A DNA stretch of 46,124 bases from an uncultured Gammaproteobacteria bacterium. Its GTDB lineage: Bacteria; Pseudomonadota; Gammaproteobacteria; Magnimaribacterales; Magnimaribacteraceae. The notes beneath the pieces are model-generated. The model was not told where the DNA came from. It was given only the letters and a program-made list of their open reading frames with translations, and made no database searches. The position numbers and the translations under genes were made by a program. This document shows positions 11,660 to 30,676 of the stretch, piece after piece (the stretch's first letter is position 1; the number at the start of each line of letters is the position of its first letter). The stretch lies in assembly GCA_964002385.1 (NCBI GenBank), contig CAXFFS010000001.1, forward strand, positions 1 to 46,124, read 5' to 3'.

Positions 11660-11665
11660 AAAGAT

Positions 11666-11935
11666 CTATAACTTTTTTGACTCATCATATCCTAGGATTC
11701 CTTCCTGTTTAGAATTCTTTCCTTCTTCCAAAGAAACTTTATATCCATCCACATAAGATAGTTCTTTGATACCATCTATATGCATTTTCTTATCCTGGAA
11801 CTCCTTTAAACTTAAGACGTTCTCCTTGGCTTTTTTAGGATCTTCAGCTGCAGTAAAAAAGTTCATATGAACCTCATAGAGCCCTTCTCCTATTGAAGGG
11901 TCATAGTAACCAACATGCACCATGTATAAATTCAT
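11666..11935 (-). CDS. Small conserved hypothetical protein (possibly DUF1543)
   Basis: 89 aa. The family assignment rests only on remembered patterns (MVHVGYY...HMNFF...HIDG..EL..VDGY.V.L). Confidence 0.4.
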   Translation of the reverse strand: MNLYMVHVGYYDPSIGEGLYEVHMNFFTAAEDPKKAKENVLSLKEFQDKKMHIDGIKELSYVDGYKVSLEEGKNSKQEGILGYDESKKL

Positions 11936-11964
11936 AACTTAGGTTTATTTAATATTTTTCATAA

Positions 11965-12309
11965 CTATAAACGAATACCAAAACGAGAAAGTAAAGCAAT
12001 ATATAACCAGTAAACCAAAACAGTGGCAACAATTGAGATAAGAAAAGAGTATATGAAATCCAATCTTTTTAGTGCTAAGGGCAAAACAACAAAAAATGTT
12101 AAGGAAGGAGGAATTAATAAAAGTATTGAGTTAGAAAGATTAACGACCGTGTCTACTTCTTTTGTATCAAAATAAAGCCAAGTAATTGCCAAAGCTGAAG
12201 TTAGAGGTATAGAAGCTAATATGCCAGCTATAAAACTTGATCTTCTAGCTATTTCTGAAATAGCTACGATTATTATTACGGTAATTATTGTTTTGACAAC
12301 CAAATACAT
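11965..12309 (-). CDS. Small 4-TM membrane protein of unknown function (DUF3147-like?)
   Basis: 114 aa with four hydrophobic segments and no catalytic motifs recognised. Confidence 0.45.
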   Translation of the reverse strand: MYLVVKTIITVIIIVAISEIARRSSFIAGILASIPLTSALAITWLYFDTKEVDTVVNLSNSILLLIPPSLTFFVVLPLALKRLDFIYSFLISIVATVLVYWLYIALLSRFGIRL

Positions 12310-12361
12310 GCTAACTCGATTTCTACTAATTTTTTAATTCTCAAGTATTATTATAGAAAGA

Positions 12362-12949
12362 ATGGCTAAGAACAATAAAGATACTAACTTTGAATTGGAA
12401 ATTTCTCAAAAAGAACTACAAGAATTCATTGAAAATTTAGATCCTAAAAGGAATATTCAAGATCTAGCTGCATCTGCAGCTGAAATAATAGCCTCTGCCG
12501 GATTTTCTACGCACTGGGATGATATTTTACCTATGTTGGATGATGAACATATTTCAGAAGATTTAAGATTGGCTGCACATATTATTTTTAGAGCTAAACT
12601 AGTATTGGAAGAGATGGAAAAAGATTCTTCGTTACGTAATATCGTCTATAACACAATGCTAATGATGGATGCCTTAGAGGTGGCCAACATAAAGGGATAT
12701 ATTCCTTCTGCATCTGATGTGAATTTCAATAAAATGGAAGCCAAAACTTCGAGTATGAATATGGCTATCAAAAAAGAAAAAATCATTGATACCATAAGAC
12801 AGTTGGCGAAAGAAAATCCGAAAAAAGGCATCACTTGGCTTAGAAAAAGAGCATCTACCTTGCTTAGTTCTGAAACACAGAAAGGATATAGTTATAGACA
12901 AATCTTAAGAGATACTAAGGGAATGAGAATAAAAAATGATAAAACTTAA
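12362..12949 (+). CDS. Hypothetical protein (orphan, helical, acidic N-terminus and basic C-terminus)
   Basis: 195-aa ORF with coding-like composition and no recognisable motif. Its stop overlaps the crcB stop (shared TTAA). Confidence 0.5.
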   Translation: MAKNNKDTNFELEISQKELQEFIENLDPKRNIQDLAASAAEIIASAGFSTHWDDILPMLDDEHISEDLRLAAHIIFRAKLVLEEMEKDSSLRNIVYNTMLMMDALEVANIKGYIPSASDVNFNKMEAKTSSMNMAIKKEKIIDTIRQLAKENPKKGITWLRKRASTLLSSETQKGYSYRQILRDTKGMRIKNDKT

Positions 12950-13308
12950 TTGTTGGTTATCTGCATACCAATCCAAGTAGCCAACAAACATCCTATTACA
13001 GTAAAGACAATATAACTCATAACAGCCAACCAATTACCTTGCTCAATTAGTTGAAACGTTTCTTTTGAGAAAGCAGAAAAGGTAGTAAAGGCTCCTAGGA
13101 AACCCATTAACAAAAGAGGTTCATAGATTTCTTCATATTTTGGACCCATTAAATTAATTAAAATTCCCAATAGAAAACATCCTAAGATATTTACTGAAAA
13201 AATTCCCAGAGGGAAAAAAAGAAGTTGTGCTCTTTCAATTACTTCAGAAATTAAAACTCTGCATAAGGCTCCTGTAGCTCCTCCAATAAGAATTAAAAAA
13301 TACTTCAT
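12946..13308 (-). CDS. crcB: Fluoride ion channel CrcB/FluC
   Basis: 120 aa, 4 TM. IGGATGALCRVLI and GFLGAFTTFSAFS are typical CrcB motifs. Confidence 0.9.
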   Translation of the reverse strand: MKYFLILIGGATGALCRVLISEVIERAQLLFFPLGIFSVNILGCFLLGILINLMGPKYEEIYEPLLLMGFLGAFTTFSAFSKETFQLIEQGNWLAVMSYIVFTVIGCLLATWIGMQITNN

Positions 13309-13315
13309 TTTTTGA

Positions 13316-13392
13316 TGGTGGGCCGTCGGCGACTCGAACGCCGGACCAATTCCTTAAAAGGGAACTGCTCTACCAAACTGAGCTAACGGCCC
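13316..13392 (-). tRNA. tRNA-Lys (anticodon UUU), CCA encoded
   Basis: The reverse complement is GGGCCGTTAGCTCAGTTTGGTAGAGCAGTTCCCTTTTAAGGAATTGGTCCGGCGTTCGAGTCGCCGACGGCCCACCA. I folded it manually into a cloverleaf: 7-bp acceptor stem GGGCCGT/ACGGCCC, D stem GCTC/GAGC, anticodon stem GTTCC/GGAAT with loop CTTTTAA, T arm CGGCG-TTCGAGT-CGCCG. Confidence 0.95.
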
Positions 13393-13394
13393 AA
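13354..13394. repeat. Direct repeat copy 1 (41 bp): tRNA-Lys from 2 nt upstream of the 5' end through the anticodon loop
   Basis: ttaaaagggaactgctctaccaaactgagctaacggcccaa is identical to 20288..20328, checked base by base. Confidence 0.95.
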
Positions 13395-13513
13395 GGTCGG
13401 CATTATACATATTAACAATTAATAATTTGATATAGTCAAATTATGAAAATACTTCTCTTCAAAGTACTTCTTCAAATGATGAGATCTTATTAATTAAAAA
13501 GATATAATTTGAT

Positions 13514-14203
13514 ATGAATTCTTCCTTAAATTTAATTTGGACCAGAACTCAAAATGTTATTGGTTTTGTTTTAATGATAGTTTTCTTGGCTTATCCATTC
13601 CCTAGACTTGTTTTTATTTCAATAGCTGCCTGGATTTTAATTTCTACCACAGTCACGGCAATTTTACTAAAAACTACCTTTACCATAGCCAATACAGTTA
13701 CTATTTCAAGAGCATATGGATTGGTAATTTTTTCTTTTTTGCTTGCTTACAATCAATCTGTCACTAACTTATCTATTTTTATTTTAGGAATCTGTTTAAT
13801 GGCAGATTTTTTTGATGGTTACCTTGCCAGAATCTTTACGACAAGTTCTGCAGGAAAAGTGCTTGATGGAGAGACTGATCAACAGTTTGTGTTAGTAGCA
13901 GCTTCTACAGCTTTTATTTTTTTAGATATTTCTTTTTGGGTGTTACTTTTCCCCAGCATGAAGTATATTTTTGAAACTTGTTATGATCTATTTAGATTAA
14001 AAGTTAACGAAAAAGAAGGAAAGAAAAGAAGGAAAATTATTGCTGCAATTGTAATGATTATTTTATTTATAAACCTAGCTTTTATAGAAGAAGAATCTAG
14101 TATCTTTTTTTATTTAATAGGTCTCCTAGCACTTTCCTACTCTTTTTTAACAGATCTAATTAGGGCATTGAAGTCACAATTAAAGAATAATCATGTCTCT
14201 TAA
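13514..14203 (+). CDS. CDP-alcohol phosphatidyltransferase family membrane protein
   Basis: 229 aa, polytopic. It carries the signature ADFFDGYLARIFTTSSAGKVLDGETDQ (DxxDGxxAR...GxxxDxxxD). Confidence 0.85.
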   Translation: MNSSLNLIWTRTQNVIGFVLMIVFLAYPFPRLVFISIAAWILISTTVTAILLKTTFTIANTVTISRAYGLVIFSFLLAYNQSVTNLSIFILGICLMADFFDGYLARIFTTSSAGKVLDGETDQQFVLVAASTAFIFLDISFWVLLFPSMKYIFETCYDLFRLKVNEKEGKKRRKIIAAIVMIILFINLAFIEEESSIFFYLIGLLALSYSFLTDLIRALKSQLKNNHVS

Positions 14204-14903: not shown

Positions 14904-16505
14904 GTGGTTTTAATGATTGAAAGAAGAATTTACTACTTTATATTGGCTATTTTGTCCGCTCTGTTTTTAAATCTTTTCCTTTCAATATCCTTCACCCCAG
15001 AAAAATGGTTCAGATTAAGTTCAGATTTACTTTTATTTTTACCTTTTCTGTTAATAACAAGTTCTTTATCTAAAAAACCAAATTTCTGGATACATTTGTT
15101 TTGTTTATTAATTTGTTTATTTGGTCTTTACAGGTGCCTCAGTTTAGTTTCTGAATTGATCTTTCATAGACCATTTTCTTTCTTTGATATATTTCTAATT
15201 TCTGAATTAGATTATTTCATAGATCAGAGTCTATCTGCTTATGAAAAAAGCTTATTCATACTAGTAACTCTATCAACAGCTATCCTAAGTTATCTTGTGA
15301 TATTCAGTATCAGTAAATGGATAGTTAAATCATTCAGGTTAAGTAAAAAGATTACGCTGGCAGGAATCTTTTTAGGATTTTTCATGATAGTTTTTATTCA
15401 ATTTTTAGTCATTAAAGAAGGTGATAATTTTTCTGTAACAAGGGGTTTATATTTAAAAGATTTTGTTGTTTTTTTTGATGAAGCCCTAGAAGGGATAAAA
15501 ATCAAAAATAACAAAGATCTAGTAAAAAAAAACCTTGAGTTATCTAACAGCTTCTTAAATAAAGATGCTTATGATCTATCAAAAATAAGTAACACTAATG
15601 TTGTTATTATATTTGTTGAATCGTATGGAGCTGTGTTAGTTCAAAATTCAGATTTATTTGAATCTTATCAAAGCTTTTATACTGAAATGAATACCAAATT
15701 AGAAAAAAAGTTTTTCTCCATGGTTACTGGTTATTCAGCAGCTCCTGAAAGTTCTTGGCTTTCTAGACTAAGTTTTTCATCCGGCACAAAGATGGATCAC
15801 AGATACATAGCTAACCTAGCAATGGTGTCCAATTTGACGACATTAAATAAGAAATTTTCTTTAGAAGGTCATAAAACTTTTAGTTTTATGCCAGGTGTCA
15901 CTGAACATGTTGAATACATAGAATCATTCTTCGATTTCGAAAAAAGAATTCGTTTTTGGCATTTAGATTGGCCTGCTGATATAAATCCAGTTGGCTGGGC
16001 AGTCATTCCAGATCAATTTGCTTTGGAGTGGTTGGGAAGAAAATCAAGTTTCGAGAACTTAACCCCTTTTTACACAGAGATAGTCCTCTCAAGCAGCCAT
16101 ACACCATTTGGCGAAGTGCCTCCTTACATACCAAAAGGAAATTTTAACTTAGAAGACTATCCTTTTATTAAAAAAAGAAATTCTTTGGGTATTTTGTCTC
16201 ACATGGAAAGCAGCCCTAAAAAATACATGATTTCAATTGAATATAGTCTCAATTCAGTTTGTGACTTTATTGAAAAATATCTTAGCCCGGAAGATTTGAT
16301 TATTGTGATAGGAGATCATCAACCTCCTGTACTGAAAACTAATTCTAATCTAGTTCCAGTACATATTATTAGTGGTAAAAAGAGCTTATTAGACCCATTT
16401 GAAAAAATAGGTTTCCATAACAATTTATCTCAATTAAAACTTAAAAAACATATTAATCACGAAGACATTGCGGAATTCCTATTGGAGAACTATTCTTCTT
16501 ATTAA
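14904..16505 (+). CDS. Membrane-anchored alkaline-phosphatase-superfamily protein (sulfatase / LTA-synthase / phospho-alcohol transferase-like)
   Basis: 533 aa with about 5 N-terminal TM helices and then an extracytoplasmic domain. That domain has VVIIFVESYGAVL (metal/nucleophile region) and IIVIGDHQPP (the GDH motif of the superfamily). The start is GTG at 14904 or ATG at 14913. Confidence 0.6.
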   Translation: MVLMIERRIYYFILAILSALFLNLFLSISFTPEKWFRLSSDLLLFLPFLLITSSLSKKPNFWIHLFCLLICLFGLYRCLSLVSELIFHRPFSFFDIFLISELDYFIDQSLSAYEKSLFILVTLSTAILSYLVIFSISKWIVKSFRLSKKITLAGIFLGFFMIVFIQFLVIKEGDNFSVTRGLYLKDFVVFFDEALEGIKIKNNKDLVKKNLELSNSFLNKDAYDLSKISNTNVVIIFVESYGAVLVQNSDLFESYQSFYTEMNTKLEKKFFSMVTGYSAAPESSWLSRLSFSSGTKMDHRYIANLAMVSNLTTLNKKFSLEGHKTFSFMPGVTEHVEYIESFFDFEKRIRFWHLDWPADINPVGWAVIPDQFALEWLGRKSSFENLTPFYTEIVLSSSHTPFGEVPPYIPKGNFNLEDYPFIKKRNSLGILSHMESSPKKYMISIEYSLNSVCDFIEKYLSPEDLIIVIGDHQPPVLKTNSNLVPVHIISGKKSLLDPFEKIGFHNNLSQLKLKKHINHEDIAEFLLENYSSY

Positions 16506-17666: not shown

Positions 17667-18725
17667 ATGTTTGAAATTGAAGTTCTACAACCACCAAGAA
17701 ATAATCTTCAGTCTGGTGGCTATTTGTTTAATTATAAAATAACTCAAAACCTCAAAAAGAAATGCTCTTGTCGACTAGTTGAAATTGAAAATAAAGATCT
17801 TGTTAAATACTTATCAAAACGTGCTAAGAATAAATCTGTAATTATCTTAGATAGTATTTATCTTAAATATATAGATTATTCAGAAATTGAACCTTTATTG
17901 AAGGGTAGAAACCGTAGAATTATGCTTTTATTGCACTTATTACCTAGCGCTGACTTAAATAAAGAAAATTCAACTCTCACTTTAAAACGAAAAATTCAAT
18001 CTAGAGAACTAGGTTGGATTAAGAAAAGCAACTTAGTAATTATAGTAACAGGTAAAAATTACAAAAAAGAGCTGGTTAAAAAAGGGGTTTGCCCTTCGAG
18101 GATAAAGGTTATCTACCCGGGCCAAGAAACCAAAATACTTAAGAATAAAGAAGTATCAAATAGAGTAAAGCATCCTGTAAGAGGTGTAACAGTTGGTTCT
18201 ATATGTCCAAGAAAGAATCAAATTCTGCTTCTAGAAATACTAAGAAAAATTAAACCTGAGTTATATGAATGGACCTTTATAGGTAATATGGATATATCTC
18301 CTAAATACACCAAAAAATTAATTCATATTGTTAAAAAGGGTAAGATGAAAAATAGTATATTTTTTAAAGATCAGATTCATCACACAAAAGTCATTGAGAA
18401 CCTTCTTCAATCAGATTTATACGTGTCAACTTCAGTTCAGGAGTCCTACGGCATATCTGTAGCAGAAGCTTGTAGTGTAGGTCTACCAGTATTGTCTTTA
18501 AATACTGGAGACTTTTCTTATTGGGTACAAAATAATAAAAATGGTTATTTAATAGACCAAGAAAATACGAAAGAACTTGAAAATAAAATACTTGCTGTTC
18601 TTGCTGATTTAAATTTATTAAATCAATTGAAGATTTCTTCCATAAAGCTTAGCAAAGAAATATCTATTCCCACTTGGGAACAAAGTAGCTCAAAATTTGA
18701 GAAAATCTGTTGTTCTCTCTACTAA
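17667..18725 (+). CDS. Glycosyltransferase, GT4 (GT-B fold) family
   Basis: 352 aa. The C-terminal ESYGISVAEACSVGLPVLSLNTGD is the E-x7-E-like donor-binding region of group-1 glycosyltransferases. Confidence 0.8.
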   Translation: MFEIEVLQPPRNNLQSGGYLFNYKITQNLKKKCSCRLVEIENKDLVKYLSKRAKNKSVIILDSIYLKYIDYSEIEPLLKGRNRRIMLLLHLLPSADLNKENSTLTLKRKIQSRELGWIKKSNLVIIVTGKNYKKELVKKGVCPSRIKVIYPGQETKILKNKEVSNRVKHPVRGVTVGSICPRKNQILLLEILRKIKPELYEWTFIGNMDISPKYTKKLIHIVKKGKMKNSIFFKDQIHHTKVIENLLQSDLYVSTSVQESYGISVAEACSVGLPVLSLNTGDFSYWVQNNKNGYLIDQENTKELENKILAVLADLNLLNQLKISSIKLSKEISIPTWEQSSSKFEKICCSLY

Positions 18726-19702
18726 TGATGAAAACTTATAGTTACTGGGTTATTGAAGCCAACAAAGGAGAGATTCGAGAATCCAACCTCAAAGAAGAAA
18801 AAGATTACTCACTAGTAAAGACCTTGTTATCAGGAATAAGTACTGGAACGGAAAAACTCGTTGGTAAAAGAAATGTTCCAAGCTCAGCTTACAATTTTAT
18901 GTCTGTTCCATACATGGAAGGTAACTTTGATCTTCCTATTAAGTATGGTTACAGCTTGGTTGGAGTACCTCTGAGTGGAAAATACAAAGGTTTAAGGACA
19001 TTTATCATGCACCCACATCAAACTTTATTTTATGCATCTGACAGTGACTTATTAGTCTTACCAGATGAAATTTCTAATGAAGCAGCCATTTTGATCCCTT
19101 ATTTAGAAACAGCTTTAAATGCTATATGGGATGCAAAACTTAGACAAAAGGAAAGTGTTGCTATTGTGGGTGGAGGGAATTTGGGCATCTTTGTAGGCTT
19201 TGTGCTTAAGTCTATGGATATAAAATTTTCACTTATTGAAAAAAGCTATAAACGCTACAGAAAAATATTGAATCTAAAATGGATAACTTCTACCTACAAG
19301 GAAAGTTCTGATCTAGGACAAACTTTTGACGTGATATTCAATACTTCAGGTTCGTCTGAAGGTCTTCAAAAATCTTTAGATATAGGAGGATTTGAGAGTA
19401 GAGTTATAGATTTAAGTTGGTATGGGTCAACCAATGTAAACTTGAATTTAGGTGAATCTTTTCACTGGAACAGAAAAAAAATTATTTCTTCCCAAGTTTC
19501 TCACGTAGCAGCTCCTAAGAGAATATCAGTTAGCAAAGACGAAAGACTGAAACAGGTCCTTGACCTATTGAGAGATCCTGTTTTAAATAAGTTTGGAAGG
19601 TGTGAAATAGAATTTAAAAACTTACCAGGATTTATGCATCAATTATATGCAAATAAAGACGTTGGATGGTCTCCTATAATTCATTATGAAAGAAATAGCT
19701 AA
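18725..19702 (+). CDS. Medium-chain dehydrogenase/reductase (MDR) family protein lacking the catalytic zinc ligands
   Basis: The Rossmann motif is VAIVGGGNLGIFVG. The positions of the ADH motifs GxCxxD and GHE read GISTGTE and GYS (Cys to Ser, His to Tyr, Glu to Ser). I chose the ATG at 18725 (TAATG overlap with the GT stop). The ORF track uses TTG at 18710. Confidence 0.65.
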   Translation: MMKTYSYWVIEANKGEIRESNLKEEKDYSLVKTLLSGISTGTEKLVGKRNVPSSAYNFMSVPYMEGNFDLPIKYGYSLVGVPLSGKYKGLRTFIMHPHQTLFYASDSDLLVLPDEISNEAAILIPYLETALNAIWDAKLRQKESVAIVGGGNLGIFVGFVLKSMDIKFSLIEKSYKRYRKILNLKWITSTYKESSDLGQTFDVIFNTSGSSEGLQKSLDIGGFESRVIDLSWYGSTNVNLNLGESFHWNRKKIISSQVSHVAAPKRISVSKDERLKQVLDLLRDPVLNKFGRCEIEFKNLPGFMHQLYANKDVGWSPIIHYERNS

Positions 19703-20358: not shown

Positions 20359-21033
20359 TTAATTCGACTCCTGAATTAAAGTTTCCTTAGATTTTTTTGC
20401 TAATTCTGCTGCTCCTGTATCAGGATATTCAGAAATAAGTCTGGAAAAATAGGAATTAGCTGCCTCATCATTGAGTAAAAGTTTCTCAATCACTCCTAGC
20501 TTATATAGACAATCAGCAACCCTGTCATGATCTTTAAACTTTTCTGCAACTACCAGGTAATGTTCTCTTGCATCTTCCAATTGTTCTTGGACTAAATAAA
20601 GTTCGCCAGACCAAAAATAAGCATCAGCAGAATAAGTTCCTTCTGGAAAAGAAATTATTAAGTCGCGGAAGACTTCTAAGGCTTCAGCGTATCTTGAGAC
20701 TTCAAACAACTCCAAAGCTTCTTTGTATAAATCAATCTCTTCAGTTGAGTTTAAATCATTGAGATTTAAGGATCCCTCATTTAATTCTTCTAGTTCTCCT
20801 GAAAGGATACTGTGTAACCTTTTGTCTAAATCTAGGTATCTTTGCTGTTGAAGTTCTTGATAGCGTTCGATCAAAAAGGTATTTTCTTCAATCAAGTTTC
20901 TCAGAGTGGCTATCTCTTGCTCTAGGGCTCCAATTTTTTGGTAAATTAAATCTAATGATCCTTCTTCCTCAGAAGAAAGTCTTAGCTGAAAAGCTAAAAT
21001 AAATACAAAAAATAAAAAAAGTGATTTTTTCAA
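20359..21033 (-). CDS. cpoB: Tol-Pal system protein CpoB (YbgF), TPR protein
   Basis: 224 aa with a signal peptide, an N-terminal coiled coil and C-terminal TPR repeats. It is the last gene of the tol-pal cluster. Confidence 0.85.
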   Translation of the reverse strand: MKKSLFLFFVFILAFQLRLSSEEEGSLDLIYQKIGALEQEIATLRNLIEENTFLIERYQELQQQRYLDLDKRLHSILSGELEELNEGSLNLNDLNSTEEIDLYKEALELFEVSRYAEALEVFRDLIISFPEGTYSADAYFWSGELYLVQEQLEDAREHYLVVAEKFKDHDRVADCLYKLGVIEKLLLNDEAANSYFSRLISEYPDTGAAELAKKSKETLIQESN

Positions 21034-21045
21034 ATCAGATTAAAT

Positions 21046-21513
21046 TTACAATACTTTAACTACAGCTCTTCTATTTTTAGACCAAGAAGATTCGTTAGAA
21101 CCGTAAGCAACTGGTTTTTCTTCTCCGTAACTAACCGTTGTAATACTGTTAGATGAAACCCCGTTAACTTGAAGCAACTCGGAAACCGCATTGGCTCTCT
21201 TTTCCCCTAAAGCTAGGTTATATTCTCTAGTACCTCTTTCGTCACAGTGGCCTTCTATTCGAACCTTACTGGAACTTGATTTAATTGAATTTGCAAGAGC
21301 ACGAATTTCTGATACGGCTGATGCACTTAGATTGTATTTATCATATTCAAAATATATTGTTCCTTCCACTGGGTTATCAGAGTCTGAGTATTCAGATTCT
21401 GAAACAGCAGAAACAGTTTCTGCTTCAACTGCTCGATCCATTGAAACTGATGCACATCCACTGAAAGAACAAATTACGGCTGCTATTATTAAAAACTGAT
21501 CAAATAAACTCAT
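21046..21513 (-). CDS. pal: Peptidoglycan-associated lipoprotein Pal (OmpA-like)
   Basis: 155 aa. It has the lipobox FSGC and an OmpA C-terminal domain (IEGHCDERGTREYNLALGEKRA...NRRAV). Confidence 0.93.
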   Translation of the reverse strand: MSLFDQFLIIAAVICSFSGCASVSMDRAVEAETVSAVSESEYSDSDNPVEGTIYFEYDKYNLSASAVSEIRALANSIKSSSSKVRIEGHCDERGTREYNLALGEKRANAVSELLQVNGVSSNSITTVSYGEEKPVAYGSNESSWSKNRRAVVKVL

Positions 21514-21587
21514 ATTTAACTCCTTCGATTAATTATACTTTCTTTTATTTAAAATAACCTCTTGGAATATGACTACATTTTTTGGGA

Positions 21588-22886
21588 TTAGTTGCTTGTG
21601 GAAACTAATAAAGGGGACCAATTGGGTTCCCTTACTCCCCCTGAATTAGTGGGTAAGATAAATCTTGTTTTTCCATCTATTGATATTCCAGCAAGAATAT
21701 CTTTTTCCTTCTCTTTAGTCGCATAAATGATTACCTTCCCGTTAGGAGAAATTGTAGGAGATTCATCAAGTTTAGTATCCGTTAAAATTTGTAGCTTAGC
21801 AGTTCTTAGACTTTGGACAGCTATATGAAATAGCTCACCTCTTCTGTGCACAAATACAAAACTCCTTCCATCTGGGGTGTACCTAGCCCTGGCATTGTAA
21901 GTTCCTTCAAAAGTTTTTCGTCTAATCTTTCCATTTGAAATAGTTATTTCATAAATTTGAGGTGTACCACTTCGATTGGAAGTAAAAATTATCTTTTTTC
22001 CATCAGGTGACCAATCAGGTTCTGTATCAATTCCAAAATGTTTTGTTAACTGTTTCCATGAATCTTTTTCTAAATCGTATCTATAAATATCTGGATTACC
22101 TCCTTTGGAAAGGACTGCAGCTAAATACCTGTCTGAAGGAGACCAGTTAGGTGAACTATTAATTCCTTTCTCCCGTTTTAAACTTTTTCTTTTTCCTGTG
22201 TAGATCTCTTGGATAAATATCCTTGAAGTACCCTCTTCAAAGGAAACATAAGCCAACTGTCTTCCATCAGAAGACCAATCAGGAGACATAAGGGGCTCAG
22301 GAGAAGAAAAAATATTTGAATCATTTCTTCCATCTATGTCAGCAACTCTAAGAAAGTATTTTTCATCAGAAGAATTATTTTTATTTATATAGGAAATTTT
22401 CGTTGAAAAGATTCCTGGTAAACCATTAATTTCATTATAAATTCTGTCACTGATGACATGAGCCAAAGCATTTAAATAGAAGGTAGTACCGGTACTTATA
22501 GATCTTTTCATTAATCTTTCCCTAGTCACATTAAATAGAGAGAAATTCACTACTACTTCCCCTGCGACTTCTCCTTGTAAAGCTGATCCTAAAACTAAAT
22601 AATCAACATCTAAAAGTTTCCAGTCCCTATAAAAGATTTCTTTATCCGTTTTAGGAAGACTTAACATTTCTTTTGGTGATAATGACTCGAATTCCCCAAA
22701 GGACTCTAAATCTGAAGAAATGATTTCATGCAGATACTCTCTGGGTGGATTTTCAAGATTCCAGACTATTGGAACTATTGCTATCCGAATTGGATCTTTT
22801 ATTCCTTCAGTTATTTCTATTCTTAATCCTGATGTTAAAAGAGAGCTGAAAATAAGAAGTAAAAGTGCCGAAATCCTATAGATCAT
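21588..22886 (-). CDS. tolB: Tol-Pal system beta-propeller protein TolB
   Basis: 432 aa with a signal peptide and repeated P.WSPDG blades (PDWSSDGRQLAY, PNWSPSDRYLA, PDWSPDGKKIIF). Confidence 0.95.
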   Translation of the reverse strand: MIYRISALLLLIFSSLLTSGLRIEITEGIKDPIRIAIVPIVWNLENPPREYLHEIISSDLESFGEFESLSPKEMLSLPKTDKEIFYRDWKLLDVDYLVLGSALQGEVAGEVVVNFSLFNVTRERLMKRSISTGTTFYLNALAHVISDRIYNEINGLPGIFSTKISYINKNNSSDEKYFLRVADIDGRNDSNIFSSPEPLMSPDWSSDGRQLAYVSFEEGTSRIFIQEIYTGKRKSLKREKGINSSPNWSPSDRYLAAVLSKGGNPDIYRYDLEKDSWKQLTKHFGIDTEPDWSPDGKKIIFTSNRSGTPQIYEITISNGKIRRKTFEGTYNARARYTPDGRSFVFVHRRGELFHIAVQSLRTAKLQILTDTKLDESPTISPNGKVIIYATKEKEKDILAGISIDGKTRFILPTNSGGVREPNWSPLLVSTSN

Positions 22887-22890
22887 AAGT

Positions 22891-23502
22891 TTAATTCTCA
22901 GGATTAAATACTAAAGTAAACTTTCTAAAATTATTATCAAATAACCTCCTACTCATATCTAAACCGTCGAATTTAGATACCTTTTGAATGGCATTAAGGG
23001 TAGAGCTATCGAAAGCTTGGTTTCCACTGGTCTTGATAAGCTTTACTTGAACAATTTCTCCAGTGGGAACTAGAGTTATAAGTATTTCAGCTGACATTCC
23101 TTTTTTTGCAGAACTTGGTTGTTTCCAATTTATTATTACTTGATCTCTAATAAGATTTGAATAATAAGAGATCTCCTCAACAGAACTTTTAATCTCTTCA
23201 CCCAATATTTGTTTCAACAACAAGTCTTTTTCCACTTTTACAGTTTCTATCTCTGCTTTTGCATTGGCAGTTTCTAAAACTGTAGGGCTAATTATTGGTT
23301 CTTCTTGTATTAGTTCTTTAACCTTCTTAATATTTTTTTTCTTTGAAATAACTAGAGGTTTTTCAAATACAAGATAAGCAGGCATTGGTTCAACTTTGTT
23401 AAGTGAGTAAAGATTATCTATTTGAAAGAAGTTGGCGAAAGATAAAACTAACCCTAAATGCAGAATGAAAGAAACAAAGAACCCTGAAAGGTAATTTTGC
23501 AT
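22891..23502 (-). CDS. tolA: TolA (short form: TM anchor, short linker, TolA/TonB-like C-terminal domain)
   Basis: 203 aa. It has an N-terminal TM helix and occupies the position between tolR and tolB. The C-terminal sequence is ILITLVPTGEIVQVKLIKTSGNQAFDSSTLNAI. Confidence 0.75.
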   Translation of the reverse strand: MQNYLSGFFVSFILHLGLVLSFANFFQIDNLYSLNKVEPMPAYLVFEKPLVISKKKNIKKVKELIQEEPIISPTVLETANAKAEIETVKVEKDLLLKQILGEEIKSSVEEISYYSNLIRDQVIINWKQPSSAKKGMSAEILITLVPTGEIVQVKLIKTSGNQAFDSSTLNAIQKVSKFDGLDMSRRLFDNNFRKFTLVFNPEN

Positions 23503-23505
23503 GTT

Positions 23506-23931
23506 TTACAAAGAAGGGGGTTGGGTTATTAAACCGACATCTTCAGCACCTGAAGCTTGTAGCACGGACATTAACTCCATAACTTTTTGGTATTTAACAT
23601 TCCCATCTCCTCTTACTACTACCTGTAAATAAGGGTTTGCTTTAAGAATTTTGTCCACCTGGACTGAAAGGTCTTCCAGATTAAGCGGTGTGTTTCTTGT
23701 AGCTTGAGTTTCAAGAAAAAATACGCCATCTGACTTAATAGAAATGATTAAAGGATCGTTTTTTTCTCTTGGTAATGGCTCAGATAGAGTTTCAGGGAGA
23801 TTTACTAAGACGCCTTGAACCATTAAAGGTGCTGCTATCATGAATACAACCAGAAGCACTAACATAACATCTATGTATGGAACTACATTTATATCGGAAA
23901 GTAATGTCCTTCTTCGCCTTCTTGAAGTCAT
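23506..23931 (-). CDS. tolR: Tol-Pal system protein TolR (ExbD family)
   Basis: 141 aa. INVVPYIDVMLVLLVVFM is typical of ExbD/TolR. Confidence 0.92.
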   Translation of the reverse strand: MTSRRRRRTLLSDINVVPYIDVMLVLLVVFMIAAPLMVQGVLVNLPETLSEPLPREKNDPLIISIKSDGVFFLETQATRNTPLNLEDLSVQVDKILKANPYLQVVVRGDGNVKYQKVMELMSVLQASGAEDVGLITQPPSL

Positions 23932-24596
23932 TTTTTGTAAAGGTCTCTACGCAGAACAATAGAGAATTCATCCATAAAATCTTCAAAACTTGAAAGAAGT
24001 GTTTCAACTGAGGCTGTGTATCTGTTGTATGCAATTAAAGCTGGTATTGCTGCAAAAAGACCTATTGCTGTGGCTATTAAGGCTTCTGAGATGCCAGGAG
24101 CTACTGTTGATAAGGTAGCTTGATTAGTTTCTGCTAATCCTCTAAAAGAATTCATAATTCCCCAGACTGTTCCAAATAAACCAACGTAGGGCGATGCAGA
24201 AGCTACAGTAGCTAAAAAAGGTAAGTGCTTCTCCAGCGTAGTTTGTTCCCTTGAAAGAGAGATTCTCATAGCTCTTTCTGCTCCTTCTAACACTGTCTCT
24301 GGTTCTAAATCTTGGTTATTAATATTCTTGTATTCTTGATACCCTGATCTAAAAATACATTCCGCTCCAATGGCTACATAGTTTTCTTCTTGGCCTTGCT
24401 TAAAAACTGCCTCTAGGCCTGCTTCAGACCAGAATAGATCTTCAAAACTAACTAATTCTTGTTTTGATTTATTTAAAAATATCCACCTTTCAAAAATAAC
24501 CATCCAAGAGAAAATTGAAGCTAACAAAAGTAAAAAAATAACCAGCTGAACTACCAGGCTAGCATTGAGAATTAAATCGATGATTGAAAATGACAT
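23928..24596 (-). CDS. tolQ: Tol-Pal system protein TolQ (MotA/ExbB family)
   Basis: 222 aa, 3 TM, with the conserved LATVASASPYVGLFGTVWGIM...GISEALIATAIGL. Confidence 0.95.
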   Translation of the reverse strand: MSFSIIDLILNASLVVQLVIFLLLLASIFSWMVIFERWIFLNKSKQELVSFEDLFWSEAGLEAVFKQGQEENYVAIGAECIFRSGYQEYKNINNQDLEPETVLEGAERAMRISLSREQTTLEKHLPFLATVASASPYVGLFGTVWGIMNSFRGLAETNQATLSTVAPGISEALIATAIGLFAAIPALIAYNRYTASVETLLSSFEDFMDEFSIVLRRDLYKK

Positions 24597-24601
24597 AGTT
24601 C

Positions 24602-25000
24602 TTATAGCAATGATTTCATACCTTGGTATAACTTGCTAGGAAGAGCTTTGGGTTTAAAATTTTTTAAACTAAGACAACCGCATTTAACAATCCCACCACA
24701 CAATAAGTTGCCTTCATCAGTAAAAACTTCTTGAGTAAAATCAAAGCTAACTTTTCCTGCTTTTATGATTCGAGTATGTACTTCTATTTGCTGGTCTAGA
24801 TAAGCTGGTTTTTTGAATTCTATAGCTACTTCTCTGACAACAAAAATAGCTCCTTGTTCCATTAAGTCCTTCTGCTCATAGCCAATCTCTCGAAGATATT
24901 CTGTCCTTGCTCTCTCAAAAAACTTTAAGTAGTTTGCGTAATAAACTACCCCTTGAGCGTCAGTATCTTCGTAATAAACTTTAATTGGCAAAATATGCAT
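24602..25000 (-). CDS. ybgC: Tol-Pal-associated acyl-CoA thioesterase YbgC (4HBT hotdog fold)
   Basis: 132 aa. VYYEDTDAQGVVYYANYLKFFERAR is the YbgC signature. The gene lies immediately upstream of tolQ. Confidence 0.92.
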   Translation of the reverse strand: MHILPIKVYYEDTDAQGVVYYANYLKFFERARTEYLREIGYEQKDLMEQGAIFVVREVAIEFKKPAYLDQQIEVHTRIIKAGKVSFDFTQEVFTDEGNLLCGGIVKCGCLSLKNFKPKALPSKLYQGMKSLL

Positions 25001-25002
25001 CT

Positions 25003-25413
25003 TTATAAATCGTGGTCTTGTATATCTTCTTTATAAAGATTTTTAAGAAGAAAGATAAAATCTTCCCATAGCAGATCTGCGGTATAAGGAGCATTAATAT
25101 TTAATTCGGGGTTAATAGCCCCGAGGGGAATTCTTACTTTGATAGGTCTTCTATTAAACTTATACACAAGCGCTGGAATTCCTTCTTCACGAGTAGCATC
25201 AAGAACTTGCTGCCACCAAGCTTCCAGTGGTTCAGCACCTGTACCATATCTTTTACATTCTATGTACCATCGTCCTAGCATTAAATCGGGCAAGTGCTTC
25301 TCCCTGGTTTGTTCTAGAATTCTTCTTACATTGTTCTTCAAACCAAGATCTGCAGTTAATAGATTTCCAATTTCTCTTTCAAAAGACGCCCCTTTATTCC
25401 TTGAATTTGTCAT
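25003..25413 (-). CDS. Small PD-(D/E)XK nuclease, Hjc / VRR-NUC-like (putative Holliday-junction resolvase)
   Basis: 136 aa. The N-terminal KGASFEREIGNLL resembles archaeal Hjc (KG...ERE...LL). It is followed by PD43-x8-E52-C-K54 (PDLMLGRWYIECK), giving the E...D...ExK arrangement. It occupies the slot where ruvC (and ruvAB) normally lie. Confidence 0.45.
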   Translation of the reverse strand: MTNSRNKGASFEREIGNLLTADLGLKNNVRRILEQTREKHLPDLMLGRWYIECKRYGTGAEPLEAWWQQVLDATREEGIPALVYKFNRRPIKVRIPLGAINPELNINAPYTADLLWEDFIFLLKNLYKEDIQDHDL

Positions 25414-25415
25414 GG

Positions 25416-26162
25416 CTAATCTAGATGCTCAACGACCTCTTCAGGAAAATCTGCATTTGAATGTACATTTTGAGTATCATCTAAATCCTCCAAAGCTTCT
25501 AATAGTTTATAAATCTTTATCGAAGTTTCTAAGTCTGTAGAAACACTAGTCTCCGGAACTAAACTAATTTCAGACTCTAGTGTTTCTATTTCTTTATCAA
25601 TTAATGCTTTCTTAACTGGATCAAAATCTTCAGGTAAGGTAGAAATAGTTATTGACTGATCTGAGTTCTCTTCTATATCTTCAGCACCCGCTTCTATTGC
25701 AACCTCAAGTACCTGTTCTAAGCTTGTGTTGTTACTTAATTGTATCAATCCTTTTTTAACAAAAAGATATGAGACAGAACCATCTGTACCTAGGTTTCCT
25801 CCTGCTTTGGAAAAAGCATGCCTTACTTCAGCTACAGTCCTATTGTTGTTATCAGTCATAGATTCAACAATTATGGCGACACCTCCAGGACCATAACCTT
25901 CAAAGGTAGTTTCTTCTAGGTCGTCTCCTTCTGCTGATCCAGATCCCCTTTGTATAGCCCTTTCTATCGTATCTTTTGGCATGTTTGCTGATAAAGCTTT
26001 ATCTAAAGCAGTTCTTAGCCTTGGGTTATCTTCTGCAACTGGCCCTCCTAATCTGGAAGCTACTGTTAGTTCTCTAATCAGACGGGAAAATATTTTTCCC
26101 CTTTTAGCATCTTGACGACCTTTTCTGTGCTTAATATTTGCCCATTTAGAATGTCCAGCCAT
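25416..26162 (-). CDS. yebC: YebC/PmpR family DNA-binding transcriptional regulator
   Basis: 248 aa. MAGHSKWANIKHRKGRQDAKRGKIFSRLIRE is the family N-terminus. Confidence 0.95.
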   Translation of the reverse strand: MAGHSKWANIKHRKGRQDAKRGKIFSRLIRELTVASRLGGPVAEDNPRLRTALDKALSANMPKDTIERAIQRGSGSAEGDDLEETTFEGYGPGGVAIIVESMTDNNNRTVAEVRHAFSKAGGNLGTDGSVSYLFVKKGLIQLSNNTSLEQVLEVAIEAGAEDIEENSDQSITISTLPEDFDPVKKALIDKEIETLESEISLVPETSVSTDLETSIKIYKLLEALEDLDDTQNVHSNADFPEEVVEHLD

Positions 26163-26164
26163 AG

Positions 26165-27937
26165 CTAATCTTCCTTATCAACAATAATTTTTAACTCCTC
26201 TAACTGGTCAGATGAAGCCTGTCCGGGTGCATTCGTCATCAAACATGAAGCTGTCTGTGTTTTAGGGAATGCTATTACATCTCTTATAGATTCAGATGAA
26301 GTCATAAGCATAATTAAGCGATCGTAACCGATTGCTAATCCAGCATGAGGAGGACAACCATGTTGCAGAGCTGATAATAAGAATCCGAATTTTTCCTCCC
26401 CTTCTTTCTTATTTATTCCCAGAACTTCTAATACAGAAGACAACATTTCGTGGTCATGAATACGCACTGATCCTCCTCCTAATTCTAGACCATTAAGGAC
26501 AATATCATATGCATCTGATAAGCAACTTAGAGGATCTTTTTTAAGCTGCTCCTTGCTACATTTAGGTGATGTGAAAGGATGATGTAGGGGAGTGATTTCT
26601 CCACTTGCATTAAGTTCAAACATGGGAAAATCTGTTATCCAACAAGGGGCCCAATCACTAGTTAATAAATTGAGTTTTTTTCCTAACTCAATTCTCAGAG
26701 CAGCTAAAGAGTCATTAACTATTTTCTTAGGTCCAGCTCCAAAGAAGATAATATCCCCTTTCTGAGCTCCCACCCTTTGTAATAAAGTTTTTACAATATC
26801 ATCTTCCAAAAACTTGAGAATAGGTGACTGTAAGCCTTCCTTACCCTTCCCTGGGTCTTCTACTCTTATATAAGCTAATCCCTTAGCTCCAAAATTTGAT
26901 ACAAATTCAGTGTAGTCATCTATTTGTTTCCTAGTTAGAACTTCTCCTCCAGGTACTCTTAAACATGCTATTTTTGAATCTTTAGAGTTTGCTGGATCGT
27001 TAAAAACTTTAAATTCAGTACTTACAAACAATTCTGATACATCTTCTAGTTCAAGAGGGTTTCTTAAATCAGGTTTGTCGGTACCGAATTTGGCAATTGC
27101 ATCTTCATAAGTCAAAGTTGGAAATTTTCCCAGCTTAATATTTAGAACTTCAAAGAAGATTTTTTTTAATAAATCAGTCACTAGGTCTTTAATATTTTGC
27201 GAGGTTACAAAAGAGCACTCTAAATCTATCTGAGTAAATTCTGGTTGCCTATCAGAGCGCAGATCTTCATCCCTAAAGCATCGAGCGAATTGGTAGTACC
27301 GTTGAAACCCTGAAGCCATTAAAGTTTGTTTAAATAACTGTGGAGACTGAGGGAGCGCAAAAAATGAACCTGGAAATGTTCTACTAGGCACAAGATAGTC
27401 CCTTGCTCCTTCTGGAGTTGCCTTAGTAAGCAAAGGAGTCTCAATTTCAATAAATTCATTAGTTTCAAGATAATCTCTAACACATTTAGAAGTTTTAGAT
27501 CTTAATCTAATATTTTTTTGCATTTCTTCTCTTCTTAAATCTAAGAACCTGTATTTAAGTCTAGTTTCTTCACCTACTGAAGCGTGCTCATCTAATTGGA
27601 AAGGTATAGGTAAAGAAGGGTTAAGAATTTTAAGAGAGGATCCAACTACCTCTACTTCCCCTGTATCTAACTCTAGGTTAACTGTTCCTTCTGGTCTTTC
27701 CCTCACTTTTCCTTCAACTGAAATTACGTATTCATTCCTACAAGTCTCTGCCAATGCAAAAGTGTCCTTTTCTTCTGGGTTGCAGACCACTTGGACTAAA
27801 CCAGACTCATCTCTTAAATCAAAGAAAATGACTCCCCCATGATCTCTTCTTCTGTGTATCCAGCCACAAACCTCAACAACTGAGTTAAGTTTCTTCTTGG
27901 TTATAGATCCGCATTTTACTGTTTCTATATTCTTCAT
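26165..27937 (-). CDS. aspS: Aspartate--tRNA ligase
   Basis: 590 aa. It has an OB-fold N-terminus ([19 protein letters not shown]), class II motifs ([27 protein letters not shown]) and a GAD insertion. Confidence 0.97.
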
Positions 27938-27949
27938 ATTCTGTACCGT

Positions 27950-28246
27950 TTAAGAACTTTCTGATTTCTCTTCTTTCTTTTTACCTTCATCTTTCTTTAC
28001 TTTATTCTCAGTCTTAGTTTTACTTACATTACCTTGCTTATCTTCATCATTTTTAGCCAGATTTTTCTTTTTTCCAGTTTTAAAGTCAGTTTCATACCAA
28101 CCTGTCCCTTTAAGCCTAAAAGATGGAGCTGTTGGAATCTGTTTAAGTTTAGGATTATTTAACTTAAAAGAATCAAGTTCAGATATCTTCATCTGAACTT
28201 CAATCAACTTTCTTTTACCTTTTTCCTTAAATACGTAAGTGGGCAT
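27950..28246 (-). CDS. FmdB-family zinc-ribbon homologue that has lost all four cysteines, with a Lys/Glu-rich tail
   Basis: 98 aa. MPTYVF......IEV......P.....APSFRLKGTGWYETDF parallels FmdB proteins (MPIYEY.C..CG..FE...CP.CG.....F.LKG.GWY.TDF). The protein contains no Cys at all. Confidence 0.55.
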   Translation of the reverse strand: MPTYVFKEKGKRKLIEVQMKISELDSFKLNNPKLKQIPTAPSFRLKGTGWYETDFKTGKKKNLAKNDEDKQGNVSKTKTENKVKKDEGKKKEEKSESS

Positions 28247-28343: not shown

Positions 28344-29615
28344 ATGAAAACTAGTAATTTACTCTTAGCAACTCAAAGAGAAAACCCTTCTGATGCAGAA
28401 ACTATAAGCCATAAATTAATGTTAAAGGCAGGGTTAATAAGACAGGTAGCATCGGGTGTATATAACTGGTTGCCTCTAGGAGTAAAAGTCCTTAGAAAGG
28501 TAGAAAATATTGTTAGAAGAGAAATGGAAAATTCGGGAGCACAAGAAATCTTGATGCCAATGGTTCAACCTGGAGAATTGTGGAAAGAATCAGGAAGATG
28601 GCAACAATACGGTCAAGAGTTATTAATTTTTGAAGATAGACACGATAGAGAATTCTGCTTAGGTCCTACCCACGAAGAAGTAATTACAGACTTGTGTAGA
28701 AATGAAATAAGAAGTTACAAACAGCTTCCTGTTATCTTCTACCAAATACAGACAAAATTTAGAGATGAAATTAGACCTAGGTTTGGTGTTATGAGATCTA
28801 GAGAGTTCATTATGAAAGATGCTTATTCTTTTGATCTTTCGGAACAACAAATGGATGACAGTTATCAAAGCATGAGAGATGCATACATAAAGATTTTTAA
28901 TTCACTTGGCTTAGATTACAGAATAGTAAAAGCAGACAGTGGAGCTATAGGGGGGGCTGATTCAGAAGAATTTCATGTATTAGCAGATTCTGGTGAAGAT
29001 CTACTAGCTTTTAGCGACAAAAGCGATTATGCAATTAATGCTGAATTGTTAATAGAATCAAAATCTGACCAGGATCCGGGAAGCCTGGAAGGACAAGATA
29101 GTCCTGATGGAAAGGGTAAGTTAAAATTAAAAAGAGGCATTGAAGTAGGCCATATCTTCAAACTAGGAAGAAAATACTCTGAGAGTATGAAACTTACCAT
29201 CCAATCTGAGAAAGGAAATATTCACCCTGAAATGGGCTGTTATGGCATAGGTATATCAAGAATAGTTGCTGCTGCTATCGAACAAAGTCATGATGATAAA
29301 GGAATAATCTGGTCTAAAGAAATCAGTCCTTACACAACTGCCTTAGTTGAAATAAACCCTAAAGGTGAGGAAAACCTTAAAAATCTTTGTACCCAAATAT
29401 ACACCTCTTTAAAAGAGAGAGGACATGAAGTTCTTTGGGATGATAGGGATCAAAGTGCTGGGGTAAAATTTTCTGATATGGAATTAATTGGAATACCTCA
29501 AATGATTATCATTGGAGAAAAATCTTTTAGAGAAAATAAGGTTGAATTTAAGATAAGGGGTGAAGATAAGATAGTCTCACTCACCCCAGATGAAGTTCTA
29601 AATAAAATTCAATAA
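28344..29615 (+). CDS. proS: Proline--tRNA ligase, bacterial type, lacking the INS editing domain
   Basis: 423 aa and collinear with E. coli ProRS through motif 2 and ...FSDKSDYAINAEL. After a ~25-aa linker it resumes at SPDGKGKLKLKRGIEVGHIFKLG.KYSE (motif 3 region). The ~180-aa insertion domain is absent. Confidence 0.92.
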   Translation: MKTSNLLLATQRENPSDAETISHKLMLKAGLIRQVASGVYNWLPLGVKVLRKVENIVRREMENSGAQEILMPMVQPGELWKESGRWQQYGQELLIFEDRHDREFCLGPTHEEVITDLCRNEIRSYKQLPVIFYQIQTKFRDEIRPRFGVMRSREFIMKDAYSFDLSEQQMDDSYQSMRDAYIKIFNSLGLDYRIVKADSGAIGGADSEEFHVLADSGEDLLAFSDKSDYAINAELLIESKSDQDPGSLEGQDSPDGKGKLKLKRGIEVGHIFKLGRKYSESMKLTIQSEKGNIHPEMGCYGIGISRIVAAAIEQSHDDKGIIWSKEISPYTTALVEINPKGEENLKNLCTQIYTSLKERGHEVLWDDRDQSAGVKFSDMELIGIPQMIIIGEKSFRENKVEFKIRGEDKIVSLTPDEVLNKIQ

Positions 29616-29635
29616 ATTTATCTGAGAAAGAGAAA

Positions 29636-30676
29636 TTATTTTTTTTCAGCTAAAGTTTCTAGTATCTGCTTTTCTATTTTTTCAGCGATCTTAGGATTTT
29701 CTTGTAGAAATTCAACAGCTTTAGCCTTACCTTGTCCTATCTTCTCACCTTCCAAGCTGTACCAAGATCCAGCTTTTTCTAAGATGCCTAAATCAGACCC
29801 TCTGTCTAAAAGCTCACCTAACCTGTTTATACCTTTATTGTAAATAATTTGAAATTCAGCCTGTTTAAAGGGTGGAGAAACTTTATTTTTTACAACTTTA
29901 ACTCTAGTTTCATTTCCTACAACCTCATCTCCTTCTTTAACAGTACCAATCCTTCTAATATCTAATCGGCAGGAGGCATAGAATTTAAGGGCATTACCTC
30001 CAGAAGTAGTTTCTGGACTTCCAAACATAACCCCTATTTTGTGTCTAATCTGATTGATAAAGATAACTAAAGTATTTGATTTCTTAACATTACCCGTAAT
30101 TTTTCTCAAAGCTTGTGACATCAACCGAGCTTGTAAACCCATATGAGAATCACCCATTTCTCCTTCTATCTCAGCTTTGGGAACCAAAGCAGCCACTGAG
30201 TCAATGACCAATACATCTACTCCGCCTGAATGGACCAATATATCTGTTATTTCTAGAGCTTCTTCGCCTGTATCTGGTTGTGAAATTAATAACTCTTCAA
30301 CATTAACACCAAGTTTCTCTGCATATATGGGATCTAAAGCATGTTCAGCATCAATAAATGCCGCTGTCCCACCTAGTTTTTGGCATTGAGCAATGACCTC
30401 TAAAGTCAACGTTGTTTTTCCTGAAGATTCAGGACCATATATTTCAACAACTCTTCCTTTAGGTAAACCCCCTATTCCTAGTGCAATATCTAACCCTAAT
30501 GAACCTGTAGGTATGGATGGAATCTTTTCAAGGACTTTGTCGCCCATGCGCATAATTGCTTTCTCGCCCGGCCCTTTATCAAATCTTGATCCAATCTGTT
30601 TTAATGCGTTCTCTAAACTATTTGTTCTATCTTTCTCTTTATTCACTTCAATACTAGTTACCTTTTTCTGTGCCAT
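29636..30676 (-). CDS. recA: Recombinase RecA
   Basis: 346 aa. It has the Walker A motif GPESSGKTT and the sequence [20 protein letters not shown]. Confidence 0.98.

Follow-up and report, generated by a model that had tools for sequence, protein, structure and literature searches.

The stretch of DNA analysed here (contig CAXFFS010000001.1, 46,124 nucleotides, hereafter the window) comes from an uncultured gammaproteobacterium of the SAR86 order Magnimaribacterales, and it carries on its minus strand a gene for a putative PD-(D/E)XK nuclease that lies between yebC and ybgC. A preliminary description of the window had placed an open reading frame (ORF) of 136 amino acids (aa) at this point, separated by 2 nucleotides (nt) from its neighbour on each side, and this arrangement was confirmed: the yebC stop codon (TAG) is followed by the two letters CC and then by the ATG of the nuclease gene, whose TAA stop is in turn followed, after 2 nt, by the ATG of ybgC at position 25000. 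The encoded protein reads MTNSRNKGASFEREIGNLL..LPD43LMLGRWYIE52CK54 and contains the motifs K7-G8-A-S-F-E12-R-E, P42-D43 and E52-C-K54; the motifs and residue numbers that had been quoted for it (PD43, E52-C-K54) are exact.

The genes on both sides form a co-oriented string that runs from aspS to cpoB, also known as ybgF (Table 1). Eight of its members (aspS, yebC, ybgC, tolQ, tolR, tolB, pal, and ybgF/cpoB) exceed the NCBIfam curated cut-offs; tolA has no NCBIfam match and is named by position alone. The same scan of the window located recA and proS just past aspS. Models of RuvA, RuvB, and RuvC found no match among the 39 other window ORFs of at least 90 aa that were scanned, and the RuvA, RuvB, and RuvC proteins of E. 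coli gave no tblastn match in the window or in 1.55 Mb of loci, mostly from SAR86. In the same sequences, the YebC protein of E. coli, which served as the positive control, gave 83 matches. The earlier statement that ruvA, ruvB, and ruvC are missing from the window is thus borne out by both searches.

In Pseudomonas, the order aspS-yebC-ruvC-ruvA-ruvB-ybgC-tolQRAB-pal-ybgF, from which the preliminary description had argued, corresponds to genes PA0963-PA0974. The order in E. coli K-12 is aspS-nudB-yebC-ruvC-yebB-ruvA-ruvB, so that the linkage of yebC-ruvC and ruvAB claimed for this species is present in K-12 as well. According to genomic neighbourhoods in STRING, YebC is the top neighbour of RuvA, RuvB, and RuvC, and YbgC, TolB, TolQ, and TolR come next (PMC3403352), a ranking that is predicted by the order yebC-ruvCAB-ybgC-tol. 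The same survey, of 2012, put the share of sequenced bacteria that lack RuvAB below 2%, most of them being parasites whose genomes are reduced (PMC3403352). In the window, the nuclease gene occupies this ancestral ruv slot.

A scan for sigma-70 promoters and terminators found nothing convincing at the borders of the nuclease gene, and promoter-like sites were fewer than in shuffled sequence. This result is weakly consistent with co-transcription and is no proof of it; together with the 2-nt spacings, it suggests that the nuclease is co-expressed with yebC and ybgC-tol. The gene is probably co-transcribed with the whole aspS-yebC-X-ybgC-tolQRAB-pal-cpoB string, in which X stands for the nuclease gene. 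The preliminary description had also raised the possibility of a regulation shared at the locus. Shared regulation through YebC is not supported. Current descriptions of the YebC family speak of translation factors, which resolve stalling where proline-rich stretches are translated, and not of ruv regulators (PMC12234827, PMC11990639). Two antisense ORFs on the plus strand, one of 133 aa (25139-25540) and one of 65 aa (25227-25424), overlap the nuclease gene and were treated as shadow ORFs.

Table 1. Features of the nuclease locus, with positions in the window
Feature	Position	Strand	Basis or remark
Putative Holliday-junction resolvase, Hjc-like PD-(D/E)XK nuclease, PF24608 (PDDEXK_15)	25003..25413	-	136 aa, ATG start
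E12 codon, putative first catalytic acid, KGxxFERE motif	25378..25380	-	conservation; aligned with Hjc
D43 codon, PD motif	25285..25287	-	SAR86 invariance; aligned with Hjc
E52-C53-K54 codons, ExK motif	25252..25260	-	conservation; aligned with Hjc
yebC (YebC/PmpR family), directly upstream of the nuclease gene	25416..26162	-	NF001030 equivalog, 7e-103
aspS, heads the co-oriented gene string	26165..27937	-	NF001750, 1e-247; synteny
ybgC (tol-pal-associated acyl-CoA thioesterase)	24602..25000	-	TIGR02799 equivalog, 4e-44; synteny
tolQ-tolR-tolA-tolB-pal-cpoB(ybgF), downstream, same orientation	20359..24596	-	TIGR02796, TIGR02801, TIGR02800, TIGR02802, TIGR02795 above cut-offs
recA, strand-exchange protein	29636..30676	-	TIGR02012, 1e-160

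Family, predicted fold and active site

In an hmmscan search, the nuclease matched the Pfam family PF24608 (PDDEXK_15, "phage putative PDDEXK endonuclease") with 40.4 bits against a gathering cut-off of 27 (E=3.7e-10), and its residues 3-98 were aligned to positions 1-114 of the 164 positions of the model. No other Pfam family was matched at E<=10, which leaves Hjc (PF01870), VRR-NUC (PF08774), RecU (PF03838), and RusA (PF05866) unmatched. Judged by these profiles, the nuclease belongs to PF24608, and at the sequence level it falls outside Hjc, VRR-NUC, RecU, and RusA. The VRR-NUC identity that the preliminary description had offered beside Hjc was rejected for want of a match to the PF08774 hidden Markov model (HMM). 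Neither an NCBIfam model nor a PADLOC defence model matched the protein, and the latter result leaves a defence-system reading unsupported. When the single sequence was compared with PDB sequences, nothing came up but a chance match to acetyl-CoA carboxylase (E=0.89). The nuclease also matched PHROG 244 (phrog_244), which is labelled "RusA-like Holliday junction resolvase", at 1e-13. As a statement about the fold, this label was rejected: there is no RusA match in Pfam, and RusA does not occur among the 50 Foldseek matches to PDB that were listed.

A set of 5.8 billion proteins contained 794 homologues, all listed ones carrying PF24608, and 442 related clusters emerged when HMMER was run in full against 1.84 billion cluster representatives. 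At least one homologue is named Holliday junction resolvase in UniRef, and two of the listed homologues are named hypothetical protein at NCBI. In a family alignment of 67 diverse members, K7, G8, E12, R31, and Q35 are invariant, and R5, L33, E52, K54, W66, W67, Q69, and P80 are conserved in at least 90% of the members. D43 is not among the listed conserved columns, and the alignment shifts around it. Among 79 orthologues from SAR86, 51 positions are invariant, including E12, D43, E52, and K54. The conserved acidic and lysine residues on which the first assignment leaned held up: in the family alignment, E12 never varies and E52 and K54 are retained in at least 90% of the members, and all four residues, D43 included, are fixed in the 79 SAR86 orthologues.

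An AlphaFold2 model built on the family alignment reached a predicted local distance difference test score (pLDDT) of 93.2 and a predicted template modelling score (pTM) of 0.88. Its secondary structure is predicted to consist of helices at residues 4-23 and 64-73 and of strands at residues 44-46, 49-56, 79-86, and 92-96. The predicted core is the alpha-beta-beta-beta-alpha-beta nuclease fold of the PD-(D/E)XK superfamily, and the acidic/acidic/ExK catalytic motif of that superfamily is present. When the model was compared with PDB by Foldseek, ranks 1-12 were all archaeal Hjc, as was every match with an E-value below 0.08. The best match was Hjc of A. fulgidus (2wcw, E=8e-4, probability 1.0), followed by those of P. 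furiosus (1gef) and S. tokodaii (2eo0); for 2wcw, 2wiw, 1gef, and 2eo0, the Foldseek probability was 0.97-1.0 and the template modelling score (TM) 0.46-0.56. The restriction endonuclease 3ndh was a weaker match. Among viral predicted structures (BFVD), the best matches were unnamed phage proteins (TM ~0.8), and the named ones were mostly Holliday-junction resolvases.

A profile search of PDB sequences placed the Hjc entries 1gef and 2wcz in the top three with weak E-values (0.15-0.3), and KGxxxER, D, and ExK were in register with Hjc; hhalign comparisons of the family alignment with two Hjc sequences gave probabilities of 90% and 86%. E12-R13 pairs with the ER of the first Hjc helix in every alignment (P. 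furiosus Hjc included), and just as regularly D43 pairs with the Asp that stands in the 'VDLVAG' / 'PDIVAG' motif of Hjc and E52-x-K54 with the ExK (IEVK) of Hjc. The protein is accordingly predicted to belong to the PD-(D/E)XK nucleases and to resemble Hjc in both fold and active site. What the preliminary description had called an Hjc-like PD-(D/E)XK nuclease thus held in its fold and catalytic register (Foldseek, hhalign) and in its PF24608 assignment; membership of the Pfam Hjc family (PF01870) did not hold.

The likeness to archaeal Hjc (1gef, 2wcw, 2eo0) comprises the PD-(D/E)XK fold, the helix with KGxxxER, the register of D and ExK, and a length of ~120-140 aa. However, PF01870 is unmatched, the identity is only ~16-22% with a TM of ~0.5, and two elements, the stretch that links helix 1 to the PD motif and the WWxQ helix, are peculiar to the nuclease family. 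Moreover, the family is bacterial and phage-borne rather than archaeal, and a dimer and junction cleavage would be attributed to the SAR86 protein by analogy with Hjc.

Conservation in SAR86 and relatives in phages

A scan of one genome per GTDB species led to 80 loci, 79 of which are labelled SAR86 or unclassified Gammaproteobacteria. The nuclease proteins of the 80 loci are 61-98% identical to that of the window, and the nuclease gene adjoins yebC in all of them. They include the closed chromosome CP151794.1 (L007) of the first SAR86 isolate, Magnimaribacter mokuoloeensis HIMB1674. Wherever the contig extends far enough, the order is recA / proS / small ORF / aspS / yebC / X / ybgC / tolQRAB / pal / cpoB. 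The sole clear break in gene order was found in L039, the SAR86 single-amplified genome AH-779-I09, where a 3.2-kb insertion (10454-13577) separates the nuclease gene from ybgC. A relocated ruvAB was considered for this gap and rejected, as the insertion was found to carry instead a gene for an acetolactate-synthase-like thiamine pyrophosphate enzyme (551 aa) and one for an aldehyde dehydrogenase (478 aa). An insertion of the same type may be present in L038, whose contig ends shortly past the nuclease gene.

The one locus with a different label is L008 (PAWD01000035.1, "Thaumarchaeota archaeon isolate SAT137"). It shows the full SAR86 order recA-proS-aspS-yebC-X-ybgC-tolQRAB-pal-cpoB with a nuclease 85% identical to that of the window, and is almost certainly a mis-binned SAR86 contig. 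A metagenomic homologue that is 58% identical lies in the same yebC-X-ybgC context.

Of the orthologues, 79 could be extracted; all of them are intact, start with ATG, and measure 135-143 aa. The median pairwise ratio of nonsynonymous to synonymous substitution rates (dN/dS; Nei-Gojobori method NG86, pairs with dS<1.5) is 0.13 for the nuclease gene, compared with 0.10 for yebC, 0.29 for ybgC, 0.30 for tolQ, and 0.02 for recA. Its guanine-cytosine (GC) content (0.372) and that of its third codon positions (GC3, 0.263) match those of the neighbouring genes. The nuclease gene is a core, vertically inherited, and long-resident gene under purifying selection, and neither a recent insertion nor a remnant.

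In a neighbour-joining tree with 40 bootstraps, the syntenic nucleases of SAR86 formed one clade in 34 replicates, and a relative with 51% identity (P0125) joined this clade as its sister in 35. The contigs that carry P0125, one of them an IMG/VR viral genome, are rich in small ORFs, and its neighbours there are a Toprim/VapE primase and a PD-(D/E)XK-like nuclease of the DUF3799 type. Cultured phages of Roseobacter and Pseudomonas carry homologues with ~36% identity. In Roseobacter phage CRP-406, the homologue is grouped with a PD-(D/E)XK nuclease, a single-stranded DNA-binding protein, and a primase/helicase; in the lambdoid-like Pseudomonas phage IME307, it is flanked by a DnaC-like replication gene on one side and by the antiterminator Q gene on the other. 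Lambdoid phages carry junction resolvases (RusA, Rap) in that slot upstream of Q.

According to these comparisons, a single ancient acquisition from a phage would be the simplest reading. The phage-type origin suggested in the preliminary description gains support from the phage homologues and from the viral-contig sister of the SAR86 clade. The SAR86 protein agrees with other PF24608 / PHROG 244 members in length class and in the motifs KGxxFERE...D...ExK...WWxQ, besides the ~36% identity to phage homologues. Unlike theirs, the SAR86 genes are chromosomal and core and lie in a housekeeping string, not in a phage module.

Ruv markers and the interpretation of the locus

The status of the ruv genes in whole SAR86 genomes was drawn from the CheckM marker table of Ramfelt 2024 (Table S1, PMC11582366). 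In this table, RuvA_N (PF01330), RuvA_C (PF07499), RuvB_C (PF05491), and RuvC (PF02075) are scored absent in the closed HIMB1674 genome, and these four markers have the value 0 in almost every SAR86 genome column shown. According to the same study, 27 of 28 missing markers are systematically absent in 732 putative SAR86 genomes (PMC11582366). The table also scores RadA, the MutS domains, the MutL C-terminal domain, and Rep as absent, and YqgF/RuvX (PF03652), RecF, and RecR as present in SAR86. Its other entries scored absent in SAR86 include SspB, RF3, BioB, and LolA/LolD, as well as both subunits of the alpha2-beta2 glycyl-tRNA synthetase, which suggests another displacement. The text of the paper makes no mention of Ruv, Holliday junctions, or the nuclease, and no paper linking SAR86 with RuvA, RuvB, RuvC, or Holliday junctions was found in the literature searched. 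The family had been catalogued and the Ruv marker absences tabulated before; in that literature, no paper that connects the two was found.

We consider it likely that ruvCAB was displaced in situ, in a non-orthologous manner, by a domesticated phage resolvase of Hjc-like type. The displacement of RuvC at the same locus, which the preliminary description had proposed, is supported by the scores of the RuvA_N, RuvA_C, RuvB_C, and RuvC markers in closed HIMB1674 and in nearly all SAR86 genomes shown, which speak against a ruvCAB set elsewhere in the genome. An ancestor of SAR86 (Magnimaribacterales) would have acquired the nuclease gene from a phage; the gene would have been fixed between yebC and ybgC-tol, the slot of ruvC-ruvA-ruvB in related Gammaproteobacteria, and the whole ruvCAB set would have been lost during genome streamlining. 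In the cell, a homodimer of the nuclease would bind the four-way (Holliday) junction made by RecA and nick two opposing strands symmetrically in a Mg2+-dependent reaction, via E12, D43, E52, and K54; then, a ligase would seal both nicked duplexes. By analogy with Hjc, RecU, and phage resolvases, we infer for the SAR86 protein the dimer, the nuclease activity, the junction specificity, and the replacement of RuvC in vivo. The wider proposition, that RecA-dependent recombination in SAR86 proceeds without the RuvAB motor or RuvC and that this single domesticated phage Hjc-like resolvase is the Holliday-junction processing enzyme, stands in our judgement at even chances.

RuvC has an RNase H fold. 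With proteobacterial RuvC, the nuclease shares the slot downstream of yebC and the presumed substrate, but the folds are unrelated and, according to the marker table, a RuvAB partner is missing in SAR86. RusA of lambdoid phages is likewise a small, stand-alone, phage-borne resolvase encoded upstream of Q, as is the Pseudomonas phage homologue of the nuclease, but its fold and catalytic residues are different and the Pfam RusA family is unmatched. If it is expressed in E. coli, RusA is able to take the place of RuvABC. RecU of Firmicutes and Mollicutes offers a precedent for a PD-(D/E)XK resolvase that replaces RuvC; lineages with RecU retain RuvAB, and recU lies far from ruvAB (PMC3403352). 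In SAR86, by contrast, the RuvA and RuvB markers are missing too, the nuclease gene lies in the ruv slot, and the Pfam RecU family gives no match.

Several points weigh against a displacement of ruvCAB by a resolvase. The resemblance to Hjc is remote (PF01870 unmatched, Foldseek TM ~0.5, E-values of 0.15-0.3 in the PDB profile search), and the stretch that leads from helix 1 to the PD motif (R31-x-L-x-Q35) is unlike that of Hjc and is modelled with lower confidence (block mean 78). PD-(D/E)XK nucleases of such size serve other roles too, and no paper on the biochemistry of any PF24608 member was found in the literature searched. To our knowledge, FtsY and the M domain of SRP54 (Ffh) are universal. 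Both are also scored absent in SAR86 in Table S1 (PMC11582366), more likely as artefacts of HMM thresholds, so that some of the other marker absences may be artefacts too. The genome-wide absence of Ruv is supported by the CheckM HMM markers of this supplementary table, and YqgF/RuvX (PF03652) of SAR86 could resolve junctions instead.

Under one alternative, the protein would be a phage PD-(D/E)XK nuclease that was domesticated for a task different from junction resolution, such as the processing of forks that have stalled or reversed, of flaps, or of branched DNA of another kind, or DNA degradation and salvage; YqgF/RuvX or RecG-type dissolution would then deal with the junctions of SAR86, if anything does, and the position in the former ruv slot would be an accident of the way in which ruvCAB was deleted. 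Such a role would agree with the presence of YqgF/RuvX (PF03652), the remote similarity to Hjc (TM ~0.5), the want of a characterised family member, and the motifs R31-x-L-x-Q35 and W66-W67-x-Q69 that are the family's own. We nevertheless hold it unlikely: every significant or near-significant fold match in PDB is a junction resolvase, the phage homologues lie in recombination/replication modules and in one case in the resolvase-typical slot upstream of Q, and a functional displacement would predict just this combination of the exact ruvCAB slot with a RuvC marker that is lost throughout the lineage.

A canonical RuvABC, or RuvAB, that is divergent or missed by the CheckM HMMs would make the nuclease an accessory protein or a substitute for RuvC in the manner of RecU. 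RuvB is among the most conserved bacterial proteins, four independent Ruv HMMs are absent from a closed genome, 27 of 28 markers are absent in 732 genomes, and the ancestral ruv slot is taken by the nuclease gene. Although false negatives do occur in the marker table (FtsY, SRP54 M domain), we regard this explanation as quite improbable. Still further from the data is a prophage remnant, whether decaying or selfish, or a DNA-binding protein that has lost catalysis, in either case without a cellular nuclease function. The family is mostly phage-borne, as a remnant would be, but such a remnant is essentially refuted by 79 of 79 intact orthologues of similar length with invariant catalytic residues; the dN/dS of the nuclease gene (0.13) is as low as that of yebC, amelioration of its base composition is complete, its surroundings contain no further phage genes, and no PADLOC defence model is matched.

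Other genes of the locus and meaning for SAR86

Variation was also seen on the far side of aspS. In HIMB1674 (L007, 4638-5816) and many other loci, recA and proS are separated by a thiolase-like gene (392 aa; judged by eye, of the acetyl-CoA acetyltransferase type); the gap between these two genes is only ~20 nt in the window (29616-29635) and in its closest relatives. Between proS and aspS, the window contains a lysine-rich ORF of 98 aa on the minus strand (27950-28246), for which no Pfam match was found and which is present at this position in most of the 80 loci according to tblastn. The prolyl-tRNA synthetase (ProRS) of the window (28344-29615, plus strand, 423 aa) aligns in two disjoint pieces with the long ProRS models of bacteria (559-568 positions), and its match to the "exception" model (437 positions) runs over the full length. 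Judged by these matches, it appears to be a short form without the inserted editing domain.

Elsewhere in the window, a plus-strand ORF of 533 aa with a GTG start (14904-16505) and another of 195 aa (12362-12949) found no match in Pfam or NCBIfam, and a third of 330 aa (18710-19702) has a weak BchC-like match only (1.8e-11, far below the cut-off). These three ORFs lie in a stretch of lower GC content (0.29-0.32), beside genes for a glycosyltransferase, a methyltransferase, and a CDP-alcohol phosphatidyltransferase.

SAR86 bacteria are free-living and belong to the most abundant bacterial groups of the surface ocean. Their genome completeness is underestimated by pipelines that rely on Ruv markers, and the nuclease gene has been left unnamed by annotation pipelines (homologues go by "hypothetical protein" at NCBI, and no NCBIfam model covers it). 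Since the first SAR86 isolate, HIMB1674, carries the gene, its role is testable now. If the displacement is true, it would be a replacement of the whole resolvasome of a kind not described for a free-living bacterial order, and a clean case in which one phage gene displaced a three-gene system in situ. It would also provide the first assigned cellular function for PF24608, and would show with how few recombination components a streamlined free-living cell can manage.

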